Positions 1-5,689 of a stretch of 5,689 nt of DNA are shown here, piece by piece. The DNA is taken from IMG/VR virus record IMGVR_UViG_2778260996_000001, positions 1-5,689 of that record; one strand, written 5' to 3'. The position numbers and the translations under genes are program-made. Under the pieces are notes generated by a model. That model searched no databases. It was not told the origin of the DNA and saw only the letters and a program-made list of their open reading frames with translations. The DNA is from a virus (Duplodnaviria; Heunggongvirae; Uroviricota; Caudoviricetes). Position 1 is the stretch's first letter. Every line of letters begins with the position of its first letter.

Positions 1-501
1 AAAACCTGGTCCCTGACGCATCCGGTGGATGACGCAATTACCCTGCTGACACAGGGCGGCAGACTGACCTGTAAGTTCCGCCTGTCAGGCGCACTGACCA
101 ACAATCAGTTCGGGCTGGGGATTTATCTGTATACGGATGCTCCCGTTCCTGATGGTGTGGCGATGACGGGTACCGGTAATCCGTTCCTGATGTCGTACTT
201 CACTCAGACCACTGACGGCAGAGTGAATCTGATGCATCACAGGAAAGCCGGAAACACGAAGCTGGGGGAGTTCGGCGATTACGGTAACGACTGGCAGACG
301 CTGGAGCTGGTGTTCACCGCCGGCAGTGCCACGGTTACTCCGAAACTGAATGGAGTGGCTGGCCCGGCATTCCAGGTTATAAAAGACAGTCTGACACTGG
401 GACTGAATGCGCTGACGCTGACGGATGTTACAAAAAATGCAGCGTATGGCGTTGAGATAGAAAGTCTGGTGCTGGAGATAAATGCACCGGCATCATCATA
501 A
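1..501 (+). CDS. hypothetical protein, C-terminal portion (gene starts upstream of window); beta-rich, possibly lectin/carbohydrate-binding-like
   Basis: Reading frame 1 is open from nt 1 (KTWSLTHPV...) to the TAA at 499-501, so the GTG at 25 is probably internal. Gly/Thr/Val-rich composition suggests a beta-sandwich; no motif I can assign to a family. It sits immediately upstream of the lysis cassette, the slot where lambdoid prophages carry morons. Confidence 0.55.
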
Positions 502-586
502 AAAGTGAGCCAGTCAAATGGAAGGTATCGTTAAACTCACCGGTAGTGTCAGTGGGTCGTCTGAGACGCCTGCATGAGTTATCAGA

Positions 587-615
587 GCCATCAGTACTTA
601 ACTGGTGGCTTTTTT
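587..615 (+). terminator. intrinsic-terminator-like hairpin upstream of the holin gene (candidate late-operon tR'-type terminator)
   Basis: GCCATCAG (587-594) / 7-nt loop / CTGGTGGC (602-609) forms an 8-bp stem with one G-U pair, followed directly by TTTTTT (610-615). It lies 35 nt upstream of the holin ATG. Confidence 0.45.
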
Positions 616-650
616 ATTGTTGTCAGCTTCCGGATAACGGGAGACGGGGT

Positions 651-866
651 ATGTACCAGATGGAAAAAATCACAACAGGTGTGTCATACACCACGTCAGC
701 GGTGGGGACGGGATACTGGTTACTGCAGCTGCTGGACAAAGTCTCTCCGTCCCAGTGGGTGGCAATCGGTGTGCTGGGGAGTCTGCTGTTTGGCCTGCTG
801 ACGTATCTGACAAACCTTTATTTCAAGATTAAAGAAGATAAGCGCAAGGCTGCGAGAGGTGAATAA
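651..866 (+). CDS. S: class II holin / pinholin, phage 21 S21-like, with dual-start motif
   Basis: ATG at 651 preceded by GGGAGA (639-644) at 6-nt spacing. The 71-aa product [25 protein letters not shown]...[36 protein letters not shown] has two TMDs and a charged C-terminus, and closely resembles S21 / E. coli essD as I recall them. Met1 and Met4 give the antiholin/holin dual start. The GTG-extended ORF from 546 is rejected because it spans the terminator hairpin. Confidence 0.9.
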
Positions 867-1363
867 TGCCTCCATCATTACGAAAAGCCGTTGCTGCTGC
901 TATTGGTGGTGGGGCTGTTGCCATAGCGTCTGTGCTCATCACTGGTCCGAGTGGTGACGATGGCCTGGAAGGTGTCAGCTACATACCATACGAAGATATC
1001 GTTGGCGTATGGACTGTATGTCATGGACACACCGGAAAAGACATCATGCCCGGTAAAACGTATACCGAAGCAGAATGCAAAGCCCTCCTGAATAAAGACC
1101 TTGCCACGGTCGCCAGACAAATTAACCCGTACATCAAAATCGATATACCGGAAACAACGCGCGGCGCTCTTTACTCGTTCGTTTACAACGTGGGCGCTGG
1201 CAATTTCAGAACATCGACGCTTCTTCGCAAAATAAACCAGGGCGATATCAAAGGCGCATGTGATCAGCTACGGCGCTGGACATACGCTGGCGGTAAGCAA
1301 TGGAAAGGGCTGATGACTCGCCGTGAGATTGAGCGTGAAGTCTGTTTGTGGGGGCAACAATGA
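866..1363 (+). CDS. R: SAR endolysin (phage lysozyme, T4-lysozyme-like muramidase), R21-like
   Basis: ATG overlaps the holin stop (TAATG at 864-868). The N-terminus [27 protein letters not shown] is a Gly/Ala-rich signal-anchor-release domain, followed by a lysozyme core ([23 protein letters not shown] ... [21 protein letters not shown]). Near-identical to phage 21 R as recalled. Confidence 0.93.
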
Positions 1364-1797
1364 GCAGAGTAACCGCGATTATCTACGTTCTGGTCATCTG
1401 CCTCATCGTCTGCCTTTCATGGGCTGTTAATCATTACCGTGATAACGCCATCGCCTACAAAGAGCAGCGCGATAAAGCCACATCCATCATCGCTGATATG
1501 CAGAAGCGGCAACGTGATGTAGCAGAACTTGACGCCAGATACACAAAGGAGCTTGCTGATGCTAATGCGACTATCGAAAGTCTCCGTGCTGATGTTTCTG
1601 CTGGGCGTAAGCGCCTGCAAGTCTCCGCCACCTGTGCAAAGTCAACGACCGGAGCCAGCAGCATGGGCGATGGAGAAAGCCCAGGACTTACAGCAGATGC
1701 TGAACTCAATTATTACCGTCTCCGAGGTGGAATCGACAAGATAACCGCGCAGGTTAACTACCTGCAGGAATACATCAGGACGCAGTGCTTAAAATAA
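1360..1797 (+). CDS. Rz: Rz i-spanin (inner-membrane spanin subunit)
   Basis: ATGA overlap with the endolysin stop (1360-1363), GGGG at 1351-1354 as RBS. The product [39 protein letters not shown]... has an N-terminal TMD plus coiled-coil periplasmic region and strongly resembles lambda Rz from memory. The GTG at 1348 in the ORF track is a less likely start. Confidence 0.88.
1559..1744 (+). CDS. Rz1: Rz1 o-spanin (outer-membrane lipoprotein spanin), embedded in Rz in the +1 frame
   Basis: ATG at 1559 preceded by AAGGAG (1546-1551). The product [20 protein letters not shown]|[16 protein letters not shown]... has a signal peptide with lipobox-like VSAC followed by a proline-rich mature segment, the classic Rz1 architecture, and lies wholly inside Rz. 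Confidence 0.8.
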
Positions 1798-1837
1798 TTT
1801 TAATTTCACTGAAATTTAACAAGTGACTTTCAGGAAA

Positions 1838-1864
1838 ATGCCTCGCAGATGCGGGGCATTTTTG
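1838..1864 (+). terminator. rho-independent terminator downstream of Rz/Rz1 (possibly bidirectional)
   Basis: ATGCCTCGC (1838-1846) / AGAT loop / GCGGGGCAT (1851-1859) forms a 9-bp GC-rich stem with one G-U pair, followed by TTTT(G) and preceded by AAAA. Confidence 0.7.
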
Positions 1865-2015
1865 TACCGGTATTTCACCGCGCACCGCAGCGCACAATAA
1901 ACACCGAACCTGACCCTTTGGAATGGGCCTTTGAGGATACCAGTTAGTGCTGGCGAGCCTCGGTGGGCTGGTTTCCTGTGCGGCAAAGGTTCATTTCAAA
2001 GAAGCAGGCAACGCC

Positions 2016-2564
2016 ATGAATGAATTAATTGCGAATCATGACTTCGACTTTCGCCAGTTAGTTACCGCAGCAGAAGGTCAACCGGTAACTGACACCTTCC
2101 AGATTGCCAGGGCATTTGGTAAACGCCATCAGCATGTGATTAGGGCTATTAAATGTTTGAGATGTTCTGAGGAATTCTCGACAACCCATTTTTGGGCCGT
2201 CGAGAAAATCAATGGCTTAGGTATTTTTGACAAGAAACAGATTTACTACCGCATGGACTTTAGTGGCTTCGTTATGCTGGTTATGGGATTTAACGGGGCA
2301 AAAGCCGATGCTGTTAAAGAAGCCTATATCAATGCGTTTAACTGGATGTCAGCAGAACTCCGTAAGTACAGCGAAAGTTATGAAGCAGAACGTAACGCCG
2401 TAATGCTGGAGTACATGAAAGAGAAGGATGTCGCCAGCATGTCAGGCCGTCTGCTCAATCGCTGGGGGAGAACGAAAAAACCTCAATTGCTTGCAAAGCT
2501 GGAACGTCTGGAGAGACAGGGACAGTTTTTATTACCGGGATTCGATAAAGGTATTCAAGCCTGA
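2016..2564 (+). CDS. rha: Rha-family phage regulatory protein (antirepressor-like, Phage_pRha domain)
   Basis: The translation contains the Rha signature ...VTDTFQIARAFGKRHQHVIRAIKCL... and ...FSGFVMLVMGFNGAKADAVKEAYINAF.... ATG at 2016 (MNELIANHDFDF...) is chosen over the upstream GTG at 1947; both are possible starts. The position after the lysis genes matches where rha sits in P22-like genomes. Confidence 0.82.
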   Translation: MNELIANHDFDFRQLVTAAEGQPVTDTFQIARAFGKRHQHVIRAIKCLRCSEEFSTTHFWAVEKINGLGIFDKKQIYYRMDFSGFVMLVMGFNGAKADAVKEAYINAFNWMSAELRKYSESYEAERNAVMLEYMKEKDVASMSGRLLNRWGRTKKPQLLAKLERLERQGQFLLPGFDKGIQA

Positions 2565-2862
2565 CACATTATGCGCTGTATCGTCGCCGTATTCCCGCAT
2601 TAACCATGACCGTAGCCCGACAGGGAGACTCCTCTGCGCGAGTGTGCGGGGATAATCAAAAACGATACACACCGGGGTTTACCGCGTTAACGGAGCGCGG
2701 CGTTGTCCCCTCATGGTCGCTGGTTCGGTGCGATGGTGGAAGAAACCGGACGATGTGTTACCTCGCAAGACCTGTTATGTCATGTGTCTGATTTGTGATT
2801 TAAGTCGGATAATTGTCGTTGCCATTAAGCAGAGGATTGATGGCCGACAGGGTGGCATTGTT

Positions 2863-2879
2863 AGAATAAGACTTATTCT
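2863..2879. promoter_or_regulatory. perfect 8-bp inverted repeat with 1-bp spacer (candidate operator) in the promoter region of the TonB-C lipoprotein gene
   Basis: AGAATAAG-A-CTTATTCT at 2863-2879, about 20 nt upstream of the lipoprotein start. It overlaps a possible -10 (TAGAAT 2862-2867); a weak -35 candidate TTGATG lies at 2837-2842 with a long 19-nt spacer. Confidence 0.35.
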
Positions 2880-2899
2880 TATCTGTGCCGGGAATGAAA

Positions 2900-3226
2900 A
2901 TGAAAAGAAATCTTCCGTTAATTATTTTGTTGTCTTCTCTGGTTATGGGCTGTACGCAACATAAAACAGATATGCCCCGACAGTTGGTTAAGGCATTACC
3001 ACAATATCCGGCCTATGCAGCGGCAAATTATATAAAGGGACGGGTTGATGTGAAGTTTGATATTGGTGCTGATGGTACTGTCACCCGAATTGAGTTTATC
3101 CGTTCAGAGCCGCACCATCTGTTTGATGAGCAGGTTGTAAAGGCGATGGCAAAATGGCGATTTGAGAAGGACAGGCCGCGTAAAGGCGTGAAGAAAACGT
3201 TTATCTTTAGTCCTTCTGCACCCTGA
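2900..3226 (+). CDS. small secreted (probable lipo)protein consisting of a free-standing TonB C-terminal domain
   Basis: ATG at 2900 with GGGA (2890-2893) at 6-nt spacing; ATG 2894 and GTG 2885 are alternatives. Signal peptide MKRNLPLIILLSSLVMG|C with lipobox-like VMGC. The mature part LPQYPAYAAANYIKGRVDVKFDIGADGTVTRIEFIRSEPHHLFDEQVVKAMAKWRFE matches the TonB_C signature (compare E. coli TonB [55 protein letters not shown], from memory). No proline-rich linker or N-terminal ExbBD-coupling TMD is present. Confidence 0.8.
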   Translation: MKRNLPLIILLSSLVMGCTQHKTDMPRQLVKALPQYPAYAAANYIKGRVDVKFDIGADGTVTRIEFIRSEPHHLFDEQVVKAMAKWRFEKDRPRKGVKKTFIFSPSAP

Positions 3227-3357
3227 TTATTTCATCAGAAATTAATTATCACTCTGTTGTTATTCTGTACATTCCGGCTGGGTAAGTCTTGTTCCGCCGG
3301 GTATGAAGATGAAATATTGTTGGAGGACAGTGGGTACCTGCTCCTGTAACCGAACGT

Positions 3358-3558
3358 TCATTTCTCGTTATTTGTCATGCTGGCCGGACGCAGATGCGTT
3401 GCATCTGTTGCCAGCCTTCTCCTGCAGGCTTCAATAACCCACGCTGAAAAGTTACCGGAACCTTTATGTTCAAGGGCGATATTGATCTGTTCAATCATGT
3501 GATTGGGGAAACGGATATTGCGGATTGTGGTTCTGCGGGTCCGGTTTTTCGATGACAT
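3358..3558 (-). CDS. small basic ribbon-helix-helix-like DNA-binding protein (possibly YlcI/YnfO-like prophage protein family; family assignment from memory only)
   Basis: Minus-strand ATG (complement of 3556-3558) preceded by AGAGGA at 6-nt spacing. The 66-aa product has an Arg-rich N-terminus and a predicted beta-strand TIRNIRFP followed by two helices (MIEQINIALEHKG / NFSAWVIEACRRRL), an Arc/MetJ/CopG-like layout. No competing + strand ORF exists in 3227-3599. Confidence 0.65.
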   Translation of the reverse strand: MSSKNRTRRTTIRNIRFPNHMIEQINIALEHKGSGNFSAWVIEACRRRLATDATHLRPASMTNNEK

Positions 3559-3599
3559 TTTCTTTCCTCTGGTGACAAGCTATATGGAGAGGATTTTAC

Positions 3600-3965
3600 A
3601 TGGCTGTGCTTCGTACGTTACCGGGCAGAATCAAAACTCTGAACACCCGGCGGGTGAATGTCCTGAAGGGTGAACAGCGTCGGGTCAGTGGTAGTGCCCG
3701 GGTTTCCCTCAAGCGTCGTATCTGGCTGAGGGATGCCGGACAGTGCTGTCTCTGTGGGCGTGTGGTTGACCTTTGTGACAGTGAACTTGAGCACCGCATT
3801 GCACTTCAGTTCGGTGGTGGTAATGAGGAGACGAATCTCTGGACGCTCTGTACCGAATGCCATCGACAAAAGTCTGCTCGTGAAGCGGCGAGTGGTATGC
3901 CAGACCCGACGCTGCCGGAGGTGTCCGGAGGTAGTGGCAGAGCGGACGACATCATCGGACTGTAA
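3600..3965 (+). CDS. phage-associated HNH endonuclease (terminase-associated type)
   Basis: ATG at 3600 preceded by GGAGAGGA (3586-3593). The product carries an HNH/zinc-finger motif: CCLCG...DSELEHRIALQFGG...NLWTLCTECHRQK. Its position immediately upstream of the terminase small and large subunit genes is typical of HK97-like cos packaging modules. Confidence 0.9.
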   Translation: MAVLRTLPGRIKTLNTRRVNVLKGEQRRVSGSARVSLKRRIWLRDAGQCCLCGRVVDLCDSELEHRIALQFGGGNEETNLWTLCTECHRQKSAREAASGMPDPTLPEVSGGSGRADDIIGL

Positions 3966-4025
3966 CCCGACCCGGGGGGGGTATCATCCGGCGTAAAAAA
4001 AGATCGCTTTGGACACCGCCCCCCC
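3966..4025. other. candidate cos cleavage region: G8 run and C7 run flanking a 34-bp AT-rich segment
   Basis: GGGGGGGG at 3974-3981 and CCCCCCC at 4019-4025, non-coding, between the HNH stop and the GTTAAC repeat cluster. The assignment as cosN-like is inference from position only. Confidence 0.3.
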
Positions 4026-4057
4026 TCTCACGCAGAGAAAAAATTCCCGTTTCAGGG

Positions 4058-4185
4058 CAGTTAACATGTTAACTGGCTGTCCGGGCATTTTTGCGGTTTT
4101 TATCTTTATTATTCAGTTTGTTGTGCGGAAAAAATGTTAACTGGCTTTTTCAGCAAATGTTAACCAGGCAGCAGTTAACATTTGC
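4058..4185. repeat. cluster of five GTTAAC-containing repeats (18-bp perfect palindrome, 13-bp direct repeat, 12-bp inverted repeat): candidate terminase small-subunit binding sites (cosB/R-site-like)
   Basis: CAGTTAACATGTTAACTG (4058-4075) is a perfect palindrome. ATGTTAACTGGCT occurs at 4066-4078 and 4134-4146. GCAAATGTTAAC (4153-4164) and GTTAACATTTGC (4174-4185) are inverted arms with a 9-bp spacer. T-tract-rich bendable DNA lies between them (4085-4135). All of this sits directly upstream of the terS start. Confidence 0.5.
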
Positions 4186-4255
4186 GGCATGAGACGCCGG
4201 GAAAAATGGGCTGAACCATACCCGGCTGAGTGCGTTCTGGACCCGGGAGGAGGCT

Positions 4256-4819
4256 GTGCTGACAACGCAAAAACGAAAATTTGCGCTGGCGCTCATGTCC
4301 GGGAAAAACAAAACAGCGTCAGCCATTGCCGCTGGTTATTCGGCGAAGACCGCCAGGGTTAAAGGCTCGCAGCTGGCAAAAGATCCGGAGGTGCTTGCGT
4401 TTATAGCCCGTAAACAATGCGAGACGGTGGAGGTGGATGAGGTTCCTGTTTACCGGCAGAAAAAATCAGAGCAGGAGGATAAACCCCGTCGCCGTGAGGC
4501 GGCTGCAATACCACAGCCGGACGAAAACAATCCGGAGATGCCTCCGCCCGCGGTGATATCTCATGGTATTGAATATATGGAGGATGGTCTTCCCGATCCG
4601 GTGAAAGCGATGGGGCGTCTTCTGGTGGAGAACATTAATACCGACCCCAGGCTGGCGCTGGATGCGGCTTATAAGCTGGCGCAGTTCACGCACCACAAAA
4701 AAGGGGATGCCGGTAAAAAATCGGCAAAAGGTGACGCCGCGAAAAAAGCGGCTAACCGTTTTGCGGTGCCACCACCACCCCGCCTGGTGGTGAATAATGA
4801 TAATGAGGGCAACGGATGA
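4256..4819 (+). CDS. terS: terminase small subunit (phage Terminase_2/P27-type HTH small subunit)
   Basis: GTG at 4256 directly after GGGAGGAGG (4245-4253). The N-terminus KRKFALALMSGKNKTASAIAAGYSAKTARVKGSQLAKDPEVLAFI matches the small-terminase HTH signature (AGYS.K.A ... L.K.P.V..I). ATGA overlap with the downstream large-subunit gene (4816-4819). Confidence 0.85.
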   Translation: MLTTQKRKFALALMSGKNKTASAIAAGYSAKTARVKGSQLAKDPEVLAFIARKQCETVEVDEVPVYRQKKSEQEDKPRRREAAAIPQPDENNPEMPPPAVISHGIEYMEDGLPDPVKAMGRLLVENINTDPRLALDAAYKLAQFTHHKKGDAGKKSAKGDAAKKAANRFAVPPPPRLVVNNDNEGNG

Positions 4820-5616
4820 TACCTGTGTGGAGCACGGCCTGCCCGGACTGGGCAGAGCGCCTGAAAAAGGGGCTGTCGATTATTCCGGCTCCGATTTATC
4901 CGGAGCAGGCCGCACATGCCCTGGCGATTTTTAAACAACTGCGGATTGTGGATGCACCTGGTAGCCCTACGTTCGGGGAGTCCTGTGCACCGTGGGTGTT
5001 TGACCTGGTGGCGGCCCTGTTTGGCTCCTACGATGCGCAGACCGGTGTACGCCATATCAAGGAAGTTTTTATCCTTATCCCCAAGAAAAACTCGAAGTCC
5101 ACGCTGGCCGCGGGGATCATGATGACTGCACTGTTACTGAACTGGCGGCAGGCGGCGGGTTACACGATTCTGGCCCCGACTGTGGAGGTGGCGGCCAACG
5201 CCTTCAACCCTGCCCGGGATATGGTACGACGTGACGATGATCTGGATGACCTCTGCCAGGTACAGACCCATATCCGGACCATCACCCACCGGGTGACGGA
5301 CACCACCCTGAAGGTGGTGGCAGCCGATCCGAATACGGTGTCCGGTATCAAGTCCGTGGGTACGCTGATTGATGAGTTGTGGCTGTTTGGCAAGCAGTGC
5401 AAGGCGGAGGACATGTTACGTGAAGCCATAGGCGGCCTTGCCTCCCGCCCGGAAGGGTTTGTGGTGTATACGACCACCCAGTCGAATGAACCGCCCGCCG
5501 GGGTGTTCAGACAGAAACTGCAGTACGCCCGGGATGTGCGCGACGGCAAAATTCATGATCCGCACTTTCTGCCGGTGATATTTGAACACCCTCCTGAAAT
5601 GGTGGAAAGCGGGTAA
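4816..5616 (+). CDS. terL: terminase large subunit, N-terminal ATPase domain only; ORF ends prematurely (probably disrupted or pseudogenised)
   Basis: Translationally coupled to terS. Walker A-like P-loop ILIPKKNSKST and Walker B-like VGTLIDELWLFG (compare HK97 TerL GRKNGKS / IIDELHAH, from memory). The ORF stops at 5614-5616 after 266 aa and all three forward frames hit stops by 5665, whereas large terminases are typically over 400 aa with a C-terminal nuclease domain. Confidence 0.8.
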   Translation: MIPVWSTACPDWAERLKKGLSIIPAPIYPEQAAHALAIFKQLRIVDAPGSPTFGESCAPWVFDLVAALFGSYDAQTGVRHIKEVFILIPKKNSKSTLAAGIMMTALLLNWRQAAGYTILAPTVEVAANAFNPARDMVRRDDDLDDLCQVQTHIRTITHRVTDTTLKVVAADPNTVSGIKSVGTLIDELWLFGKQCKAEDMLREAIGGLASRPEGFVVYTTTQSNEPPAGVFRQKLQYARDVRDGKIHDPHFLPVIFEHPPEMVESG

Positions 5617-5689
5617 GCGTCGTCTCAGCACCGTCTGGCAGATCCTGAAATTCCTGAGAGAATAGTGGACACCAAATATGGTGGACGCT

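Follow-up and report, generated by a model that had tools for sequence, protein, structure and literature searches.

A P22-type rha gene of a lambdoid Escherichia coli prophage, its constant C-terminal domain and a structured leader RNA absent from Rfam

Rha proteins are known for a phenotype in which the product blocks the growth of lambdoid phages in IHF-deficient hosts (PMC4936722). In infections with phage P22, an 89-nucleotide (nt) small RNA, P22F, was detected by RNA sequencing (RNA-seq) and reverse-transcription PCR (RT-PCR), and its 3' end lies 6 nt before the rha ATG (PMC13397905). In two other phage systems, c4-icd-ant of P1/P7 and IsrK-orf45-anrP of Gifsy-1, a structured leader keeps the ribosome-binding site inaccessible, pairing between a loop and its target sets the specificity, and the leader also yields a small RNA (PMC4825925, PMC12197685). 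Here we describe a P22-type rha gene (2016-2564, plus strand) and the leader RNA that precedes it. Both lie in a stretch of 5,689 nt, referred to as the window (IMG/VR record IMGVR_UViG_2778260996_000001, positions 1 to 5,689), which is a late-operon segment of a lambdoid Escherichia coli prophage. The protein and its C-terminal domain are already catalogued; new here is the covariation-supported leader RNA, which is absent from Rfam.

The open reading frame (ORF) is intact from ATG 2016 to the stop codon at 2562-2564, encodes 182 amino acids and is a genuine gene. Over positions 1900-2700 the window is 100% identical to a prophage of E. coli NZ_CP148357, in which rha occupies the same slot and the ORF is labelled Rha family transcriptional regulator. 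The original prediction placed a Rha-family protein with a conserved N-terminal motif at the P22 rha position, and this is borne out by Pfam, NCBIfam, PHROG and synteny. The motif FGKRHQHVIRAI is found at residues 34-45, Pfam PF09669 (Phage_pRha) matches residues 25-112 (E 7.2e-21, 75 bits vs a cut-off of 29.9), and NCBIfam TIGR02681 scores 72.6 bits vs a cut-off of 45.95, so that two profiles place the protein in the Rha family above their curated cut-offs. The PHROGs family phrog_518, "Rha-like transcriptional regulator", spans residues 1-181 as one profile (E 1e-86).

Phage P22 Rha (Orf201) has the same two domains in the same place after the lysis genes. The proteins share 84.1% identity over residues 1-176, with 100% in residues 1-24, 81.8% in the Rha domain and 79.6% in the C-terminal domain, and P22 Rha differs in its last 6-8 residues. 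The DNA upstream is 97% identical, the P22F sequence included. Identity in both domains, position and flanks together identify the gene as an orthologue of P22 rha. Within the late operon it is an accessory, non-structural gene that separates the lysis genes from the packaging genes, lying between Rz (1348-1797) and the HNH and terminase genes as in P22-like phages, and the gene order matches that of the P22-like phage Phi75 (holin, lysozyme, Rz-like, rha, terminase). The flanks are common to phage JLK-2012 and many Stx phages. The HNH and HK97-type terminase genes set the window prophage apart from P22, which has its own packaging module. Rha of phage phi80 is placed beside it by name.

The C-terminal half had been described as a divergent, basic, helical-looking tail of about 80 residues that could not be assigned. 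The tail as quoted comprises 58 residues (125-182), and Pfam PF10549 (ORF11CD3) matches residues 121-174 over its full length (profile positions 1-54 of 54) with E 3.7e-23 and 81.9 bits, vs a curated cut-off of 25 bits; scanned alone, the tail scores 85.5 bits against the same profile. One database source labels a homologue "Bacteriophage P22 Orf201 C-term...". The tail is thus catalogued rather than unassignable, and its identity to P22 refutes the claim of divergence. Its helical and basic character does hold in the predicted structure, where the second helix (residues 144-168) carries 8 lysines or arginines vs 2 aspartates or glutamates. As first framed, the finding is ordinary: the gene encodes a P22-type Rha, and the C-terminal domain is the canonical one, already catalogued.

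Conservation of the protein was examined across 25 aligned homologues, drawn from Escherichia, Salmonella, Klebsiella, Erwinia, Yersinia, Providencia, Shewanella and other sources. The alignment has 39 invariant columns, and residues 123-170 account for 24 of them. Codon analysis of homologue pairs gave a proportion of nonsynonymous differences (pN) of 0.03-0.08 in the ORF11CD3 core, where the synonymous proportion (pS) is saturated at 0.75-0.9, and 0.12-0.16 (0.41 for phage P13374) in the N-terminal part, also at saturated pS. Because pN is low where synonymous sites are saturated, the conservation of the tail reflects selection on the protein. The Rha of P13374 is 85% identical to that of the window in ORF11CD3 and merely 47% in the Rha domain. 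ORF11CD3 is therefore the constant and most constrained part of the family.

ORF11CD3 is listed among the domains of the Bro network (PMC10111431), and in the compared phages it stands C-terminal to three different Bro-network DNA-binding domains. In JLK-2012 and in the Stx2 phage 1717 the slot of rha carries a 165-residue KilA-N protein. A Pfam scan resolved gp49 of phage 1717 as KilA-N followed by ORF11CD3 (47.5 bits), and a second nearby gene of P13374 (Ant) as P22_AR_N followed by ORF11CD3 (26.6 bits). These proteins, with gp72 of JLK-2012, have N-terminal DNA-binding domains unrelated to that of the window protein, share its late-region neighbourhood and have the same leader RNA upstream. 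Their tails belong to the same family, with the core K-D-x-A-S...G..L..W...K, but are far more divergent, at 36% (KilA-N proteins) and 19% (P22_AR_N protein) identity to the ORF11CD3 of the window. Across the three architectures the invariant core reads N...A-S...L..W...K...L, with K-D and G nearly invariant. The locus shows Bro-network domain shuffling in which the N-terminal DNA-binding domain is swapped and ORF11CD3 is kept. The earlier picture of a conserved DNA-binding scaffold with a variable C-terminal effector is inverted: the tail is constant and the head varies among Rha, KilA-N and P22_AR_N. An exhaustive phmmer search, run with the tail on 1.84 billion representatives, returned only 22 clusters, all close Rha-type relatives or fragments, which suggested that ORF11CD3 is restricted to Rha; this was dropped once the Pfam scans of proteins in neighbouring slots found the KilA-N and P22_AR_N fusions.

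The start codon bears on both the protein and its leader. The RefSeq/PGAP coding sequence begins at GTG 1947 and encodes 205 amino acids (WP_027663731.1; positions 6048-6665 of locus L001), and the P22 name Orf201 derives from the same GTG-initiated extension (a 201-codon ORF). The 23 codons added from GTG 1947 fall inside the structured leader RNA. An in-frame stop codon lies 6-33 nt 5' of the ATG in 11 of 23 leader types, and homologues from other genera initiate at a methionine aligned with ATG 2016; the true start is therefore ATG 2016, as the original prediction had it. The position of the P22F 3' end, 6 nt before this ATG, lends further support. The RefSeq start is probably wrong, judging from these alignments, for a family found in thousands of E. 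coli genomes.

The DNA between Rz and rha is more conserved with P22 than the coding sequence is, and compensatory changes are evident in the aligned upstream regions of divergent loci. MAFFT alignment and RNAalifold recovered just 9 pairs from 23 leaders, with indels misaligned, and the leaders were realigned by covariance model. The model, R1, was built from these 23 leaders (mutually <90% identical) and has 141 positions and 30 pairs. Searched against 73 sources, it matched in all 73 with 67-130 bits, each match ending at the rha ATG; the match in the window covers 1874-2018 (115.8 bits). Covariation was computed on 73 distinct rows. Changes on both sides were found in 25 of the 30 pairs, 86.3% of paired cells were complementary vs 32-54% after sliding the partners by 1-3 columns, and the covariation score was 0.523 vs at most 0.135 in the slid controls; none of 500 shuffles reached the observed score. 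The 73-row alignment was fitted to R1, so these pairing figures lean towards the structure. The slid controls, and the compensations that the MAFFT alignment shows before any fitting, nevertheless argue for a real signal. The plus strand has frequent G-U pairs (for example 33 G-U at columns 64/144), which points to a sense-strand RNA. A single-sequence fold of 1922-2030 was no more stable than shuffles (z = -0.38), and single-sequence minimum free energy folds gave the same stem in most of the 23 variants. The leader structure is supported by covariation, not by energy.

A second pairing joins the 5' flank of the leader to its apical loop. Since the model-based alignment does not keep its two strands in register, it was assessed with an alignment-free permutation test, in which cognate partners formed Watson-Crick helices with a mean of 6.5 nt vs 3.65 nt for non-cognate partners; 30 distinct complementary pairs were found, and a mean as high as the observed one arose in none of 2000 permutations. 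Only 0-8 nt separate the 5' partner from the base of the stem, which has ~27 base pairs (bp), and a simple pseudoknot would consequently have to bend sharply at the purine-rich internal loop, which is conserved. The pairing may represent such a bent pseudoknot, an alternative conformer, or a contact in cis or trans of the c4/IsrK type.

Just 5' of the leader core, a conserved GCGC-N6-GCGC element occupies 1880-1893. It covaries in some loci (TGCC...GGCA, GCGCC...GGCGC), with G-T wobbles in a few, and may represent either a hairpin in the RNA or a palindromic site for a protein, with an A/T-rich stretch after it. Farther upstream, a terminator-like GC hairpin with a T-run follows Rz. Its equivalent is present in most related loci, and weak Rfam matches at 1840-1865 are to the 3' ends of terminated RNAs. 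A consensus scan did not call a terminator at 1840-1865, and the scan of 1700-3400 found no sigma-70-like promoter before rha in 1700-2016. Of the features of a moron, an autonomous accessory gene with its own promoter and a flanking terminator, rha thus far shows the terminator-like hairpin on its 5' side.

The leader appears to hide the rha ribosome-binding site. The basal stem extends by 4-5 more pairs into the Shine-Dalgarno sequence AAGG in 40 of the 73 distinct leaders. In the window variant 3 nt are inserted on the 5' side and there is another insertion on the 3' side, and because of these the Shine-Dalgarno sequence CAGG (2005-2008) would pair through a separate helix with CCTG 1909-1912, as read by eye. 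A rather unlikely alternative is that the leader is only a hairpin for processing (for example by RNase III) or stabilising the long late transcript, with P22F as a stable by-product and no translational control. The hairpin is indeed long and irregular, with internal loops, it lies between genes of a polycistronic operon, P22F covers the long hairpin 1916-2001 except for its first six bases, and in the window the Shine-Dalgarno sequence falls outside the contiguous stem. Against this, every instance of the motif stops at the start codon and has the Shine-Dalgarno sequence at the foot of the stem, the stem runs into AAGG in 40 of 73 variants, and a plain cleavage site would need neither the covarying loop-to-flank pairing of 6-8 bp nor the conserved loop nucleotides.

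R1 also matches upstream of genes other than rha. These include the KilA-N+ORF11CD3 genes of phages 1717 and JLK-2012 (106.6 bits), ant of P13374 (81.6 bits), a gene with ANT/KilAC domains (locus L074, 79.3 bits), an ORF with no Pfam match (locus L125, 64.6 bits) and a TerB-family gene in a prophage of the same type as that of the window (locus L001, 53.8 bits). The leader is specific neither to Rha nor to ORF11CD3, and is a 5' module, portable among late-operon accessory genes, whose recombination junction is the start codon. Where one prophage holds two copies (L001, L006 and L074), the two carry different long-range pairing sequences. A blastn search places leaders at least ~80% identical to that of the window in 958 of 5426 complete E. 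coli genomes (~18%), O157 and other Shiga toxin-producing E. coli strains included; they front genes annotated as "Rha family" or "KilA-N domain-containing", at positions that carry no annotated RNA feature. A scan of viral contigs with a more distant homologue, P0192, found nothing. For the question of how lambdoid phages set the dose of accessory genes in their late operon, the leader provides a concrete starting point.

Rfam 15 returned nothing for the whole window (E up to 1) or for 1790-2040 (E up to 10), and the covariance models of the C4 and IsrK leaders (RF01695, RF03163, RF01394) did not recognise any part of the window. As a positive control, Gifsy-1 gave 69-79 bits with the Rfam C4/IsrK models. 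Its isrK-orf45 leader (locus L167, 34131-34329, minus strand) is matched by the C4, c4-a1b1 and isrK models, and because all three match, the IsrK system is a c4-type antisense module before AnrP, which is an ORF6N protein. Like the c4 and IsrK systems, the window has a structured leader before a Bro-network gene, here one that may be of antirepressor type. Unlike them, its leader lacks a conserved upstream ORF and detectable homology to theirs. Since the match of R1 in Gifsy-1 is single, weak, without the core and away from the isrK locus, the likeness is one of analogy and not of detectable homology.

We tentatively raise the possibility, by analogy with these systems, that the leader represents an undescribed class of phage riboregulator: a portable module that occludes the ribosome-binding site of rha, kilA-N, ant or terB, in which the apical loop of the processed hairpin (P22F) would recognise a variant-specific target of 6-8 nt by the anti-Shine-Dalgarno strand, in cis or in trans. 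If so, the ~30 loop/target specificities, with differing copies within one prophage, would provide orthogonal control, and a mis-regulated switch could underlie the 40-year-old Rha phenotype.

The fold of the protein was predicted with AlphaFold2 as a monomer, from the 25-sequence alignment (mean predicted local distance difference test, pLDDT, 77; predicted template modelling score, pTM, 0.53). The head comprises helices at 27-33, 38-46 and 52-58, a beta-hairpin at 59-80 and a helix at 82-89 (pLDDT ~77-91), and is predicted to be a winged helix-turn-helix of three helices with the beta-hairpin as wing. In the tail, a 46-residue helix (95-140) is followed by the turn ASMSG and a second helix (144-168). 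Foldseek matches in BFVD were to models of Rha, "regulatory protein", antirepressor, KilA-N, Bro-N and MSV199; by these model comparisons, all are Bro-network regulators or antirepressors. Foldseek of the whole model against the PDB gave nothing below E 0.27, and a PDB sequence search with the full protein gave no match. The ORF11CD3 profile gave just one marginal hit in the PDB, to an NRPS docking domain (6ewv, E 0.003, domain E 0.055), which was judged a chance helix similarity and rejected.

We lean towards the reading that Rha acts late in infection as a sequence-specific regulator or antirepressor-type factor. The N-terminal winged helix would target DNA, with the interchangeable heads (Rha, KilA-N, P22_AR_N) setting DNA specificity. 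The two-helix hairpin of ORF11CD3 would be the constant output module, most likely dimerising the protein into a four-helix bundle, contacting a conserved partner, or both. The ~140-nt folded leader, with a basal stem that pairs with or abuts the Shine-Dalgarno sequence, would throttle the amount of protein made. Several points weigh against this reading. DNA binding by the Rha domain is argued from a predicted fold and statements in the literature, and the AlphaFold model is a monomer of moderate confidence. In a 36-residue stretch the extreme conservation across genera exceeds the usual need of a dimer interface and could instead reflect a conserved host target; for this reason a conserved host or phage partner of ORF11CD3 is a serious alternative. 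Because the leader also fronts TerB and ANT/KilAC genes that lack ORF11CD3, it is uninformative about the function of Rha specifically, and in the window the Shine-Dalgarno sequence is outside the contiguous stem and would be paired by the separate 4-bp helix only. With the tail constant and the heads exchanged, experiments on the function of Rha are best aimed at the 54-residue ORF11CD3 hairpin.

Antirepressors such as P22 Ant and those of Gifsy phages bind and inactivate prophage repressors, and ORF11CD3 could likewise be an antirepressor-type module that inactivates the repressor of its own or a co-resident prophage, with the N-terminal domain secondary. Close homologues are named "putative antirepressor" or "anti-repressor" in their sources, ORF11CD3 follows the P22 antirepressor N-terminal domain in Ant of P13374, and the gene stands behind an RNA leader, as antirepressor genes do under c4, sar and IsrK. 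We nevertheless consider this unlikely: the homologue names are transferred annotation without tests, late-operon expression post-dates the lysis decision, when derepressing the phage's own prophage would be pointless, and the sequence reveals no identifiable repressor partner.

The original prediction suggested that the C-terminal region might be a toxic or abortive-infection effector on a DNA-binding scaffold, an idea that drew no support from the PADLOC, PDB sequence or PDB fold searches. No PADLOC-DB family matched the full protein or the tail alone at E up to 0.1, so that no profile of a defence or toxin effector recognises it; the 54-residue two-helix hairpin has no enzymatic or toxin-like motif, and the PDB searches found no toxin relative. 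What hints there are, namely the classical Rha phenotype of blocked phage growth in IHF-defective hosts (PMC4936722) and a leader that would occlude the ribosome-binding site and suit a product needed at low level, are indirect. The very strong conservation could mirror a conserved host target. The prophage protein BstA shows that a KilA-N protein can act in abortive infection (PMC8585504); it likewise starts with a Bro-network DNA-binding domain, its C-terminal part is different, and it has a phage-growth-blocking phenotype. No similarity to BstA was found by sequence or profile, and PADLOC gave no match, no direct comparison with BstA having been made. Moreover, rha lies in the phage's own late operon and not in a defence island expressed in lysogeny, and the same leader fronts unrelated genes. 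An effector of this kind is quite improbable.

The window contains 11 matches to the IHF consensus WATCAANNNNTTR vs 4.2 expected, and 5 of the 11 lie inside rha (2019-2339), which is intriguing beside the IHF-linked Rha phenotype. The only exact match (2207-2219) overlaps the conserved codons for EKIN and is hence uninterpretable.

The basic character of the second ORF11CD3 helix raises the further idea that it binds nucleic acid, either as a second DNA contact or on its own leader RNA for autoregulation. Besides its charge, the helix has invariant S, G, R, N, R, W and K, and the leader and ORF11CD3 genes co-occur at three N-domain architectures. This is very doubtful, as the leader also precedes genes without ORF11CD3 (TerB, ANT/KilAC, the unknown ORF) and the region has no similarity to known RNA- or DNA-binding folds.

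Table 1. Coordinates of the rha gene, its leader and other features; positions are those of the window unless a locus (L) is named.
Feature	Position	Strand	Basis or remark
rha coding sequence, orthologue of P22 Rha/Orf201	2016-2564	+	translation, P22 identity, phrog_518, NZ_CP148357
Rha (Phage_pRha) domain, residues 25-112, predicted winged helix-turn-helix	2088-2351	+	PF09669, TIGR02681, AlphaFold, BFVD
ORF11CD3, residues 121-174, predicted antiparallel two-helix hairpin, turn A140-S-M-S-G144	2376-2537	+	PF10549, conservation, AlphaFold
Conserved structured 5' leader of rha, uncatalogued motif	1874-2015	+	covariance model R1, covariation, no Rfam match, 97% P22 identity
P22F small RNA copy	1922-2010	+	88/89 identical to P22
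Long irregular hairpin	1916-2001	+	5' strand 1916-1943, 3' strand 1968-2001
Small apical hairpin of leader	1949-1958	+	
Conserved purine-rich internal loop	1978-1983	+	
CACCGA, 5'-flank partner of long-range pairing	1902-1907	+	alignment-free permutation test
TCGGTG, apical-loop partner of 1902-1907	1960-1965	+	alignment-free permutation test
CAGG, Shine-Dalgarno-like, 7 nt before ATG, complementary to CCTG 1909-1912	2005-2008	+	read from sequence
Terminator-like GC hairpin and T-run after Rz, directly 5' of leader	1840-1865	+	read from sequence
Leader copy before TerB gene	L001 1511-1645		
Leader copy before P22_AR_N+ORF11CD3 "Ant" gene	L006 999-1142		
Leader copy before ANT/KilAC gene	L074 1358-1500		
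Leader copy before ORF with no Pfam match	L125 2442-2560		
Leader copies before KilA-N+ORF11CD3 genes	L002 1775-1921; L003 2385-2531		
SASA/DUF6645 esterase, C-terminus only	25-501		
P21-type holin	648-866		
Endolysin	866-1363		
Rz	1348-1797		
Small TonB_C protein	2885-3226	+	
YlcI/YnfO (DUF3950) gene	3358-3558	-	
HNH endonuclease	3600-3965	+	
Small terminase	4256-4819		
Large terminase, start only	4816 onwards		

Some of the neighbouring genes deserve mention. The TonB_C ORF downstream of rha has a lipoprotein-like N-terminus (LVMGC) and a Pfam TonB_C match (E 6e-15), and PHROGs places it in a family labelled "Rz-like spanin". Phage JLK-2012 carries this ORF; the NZ_CP148357 prophage, which is identical over 1900-2700, lacks it and has a gap of 190 nt between Rha and YlcI vs ~800 nt in the window. 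Possibly the ORF is a moron acting against TonB-dependent uptake. Within and antisense to it, a near-consensus sigma-70 promoter-like sequence (TTCACA-16-TATAAT, 11/12) lies at 3027-3054 on the minus strand. Farther downstream, YlcI/YnfO on the minus strand is followed by HNH directly 5' of terS/terL, the usual HNH-assisted packaging layout of HK97-like lambdoid phages. In another frame within Rz, the ORF at 1529-1744 (plus strand) has a lipobox-like LLGVSAC and a proline-rich tail, and by these features looks like the Rz1 outer-membrane spanin subunit.

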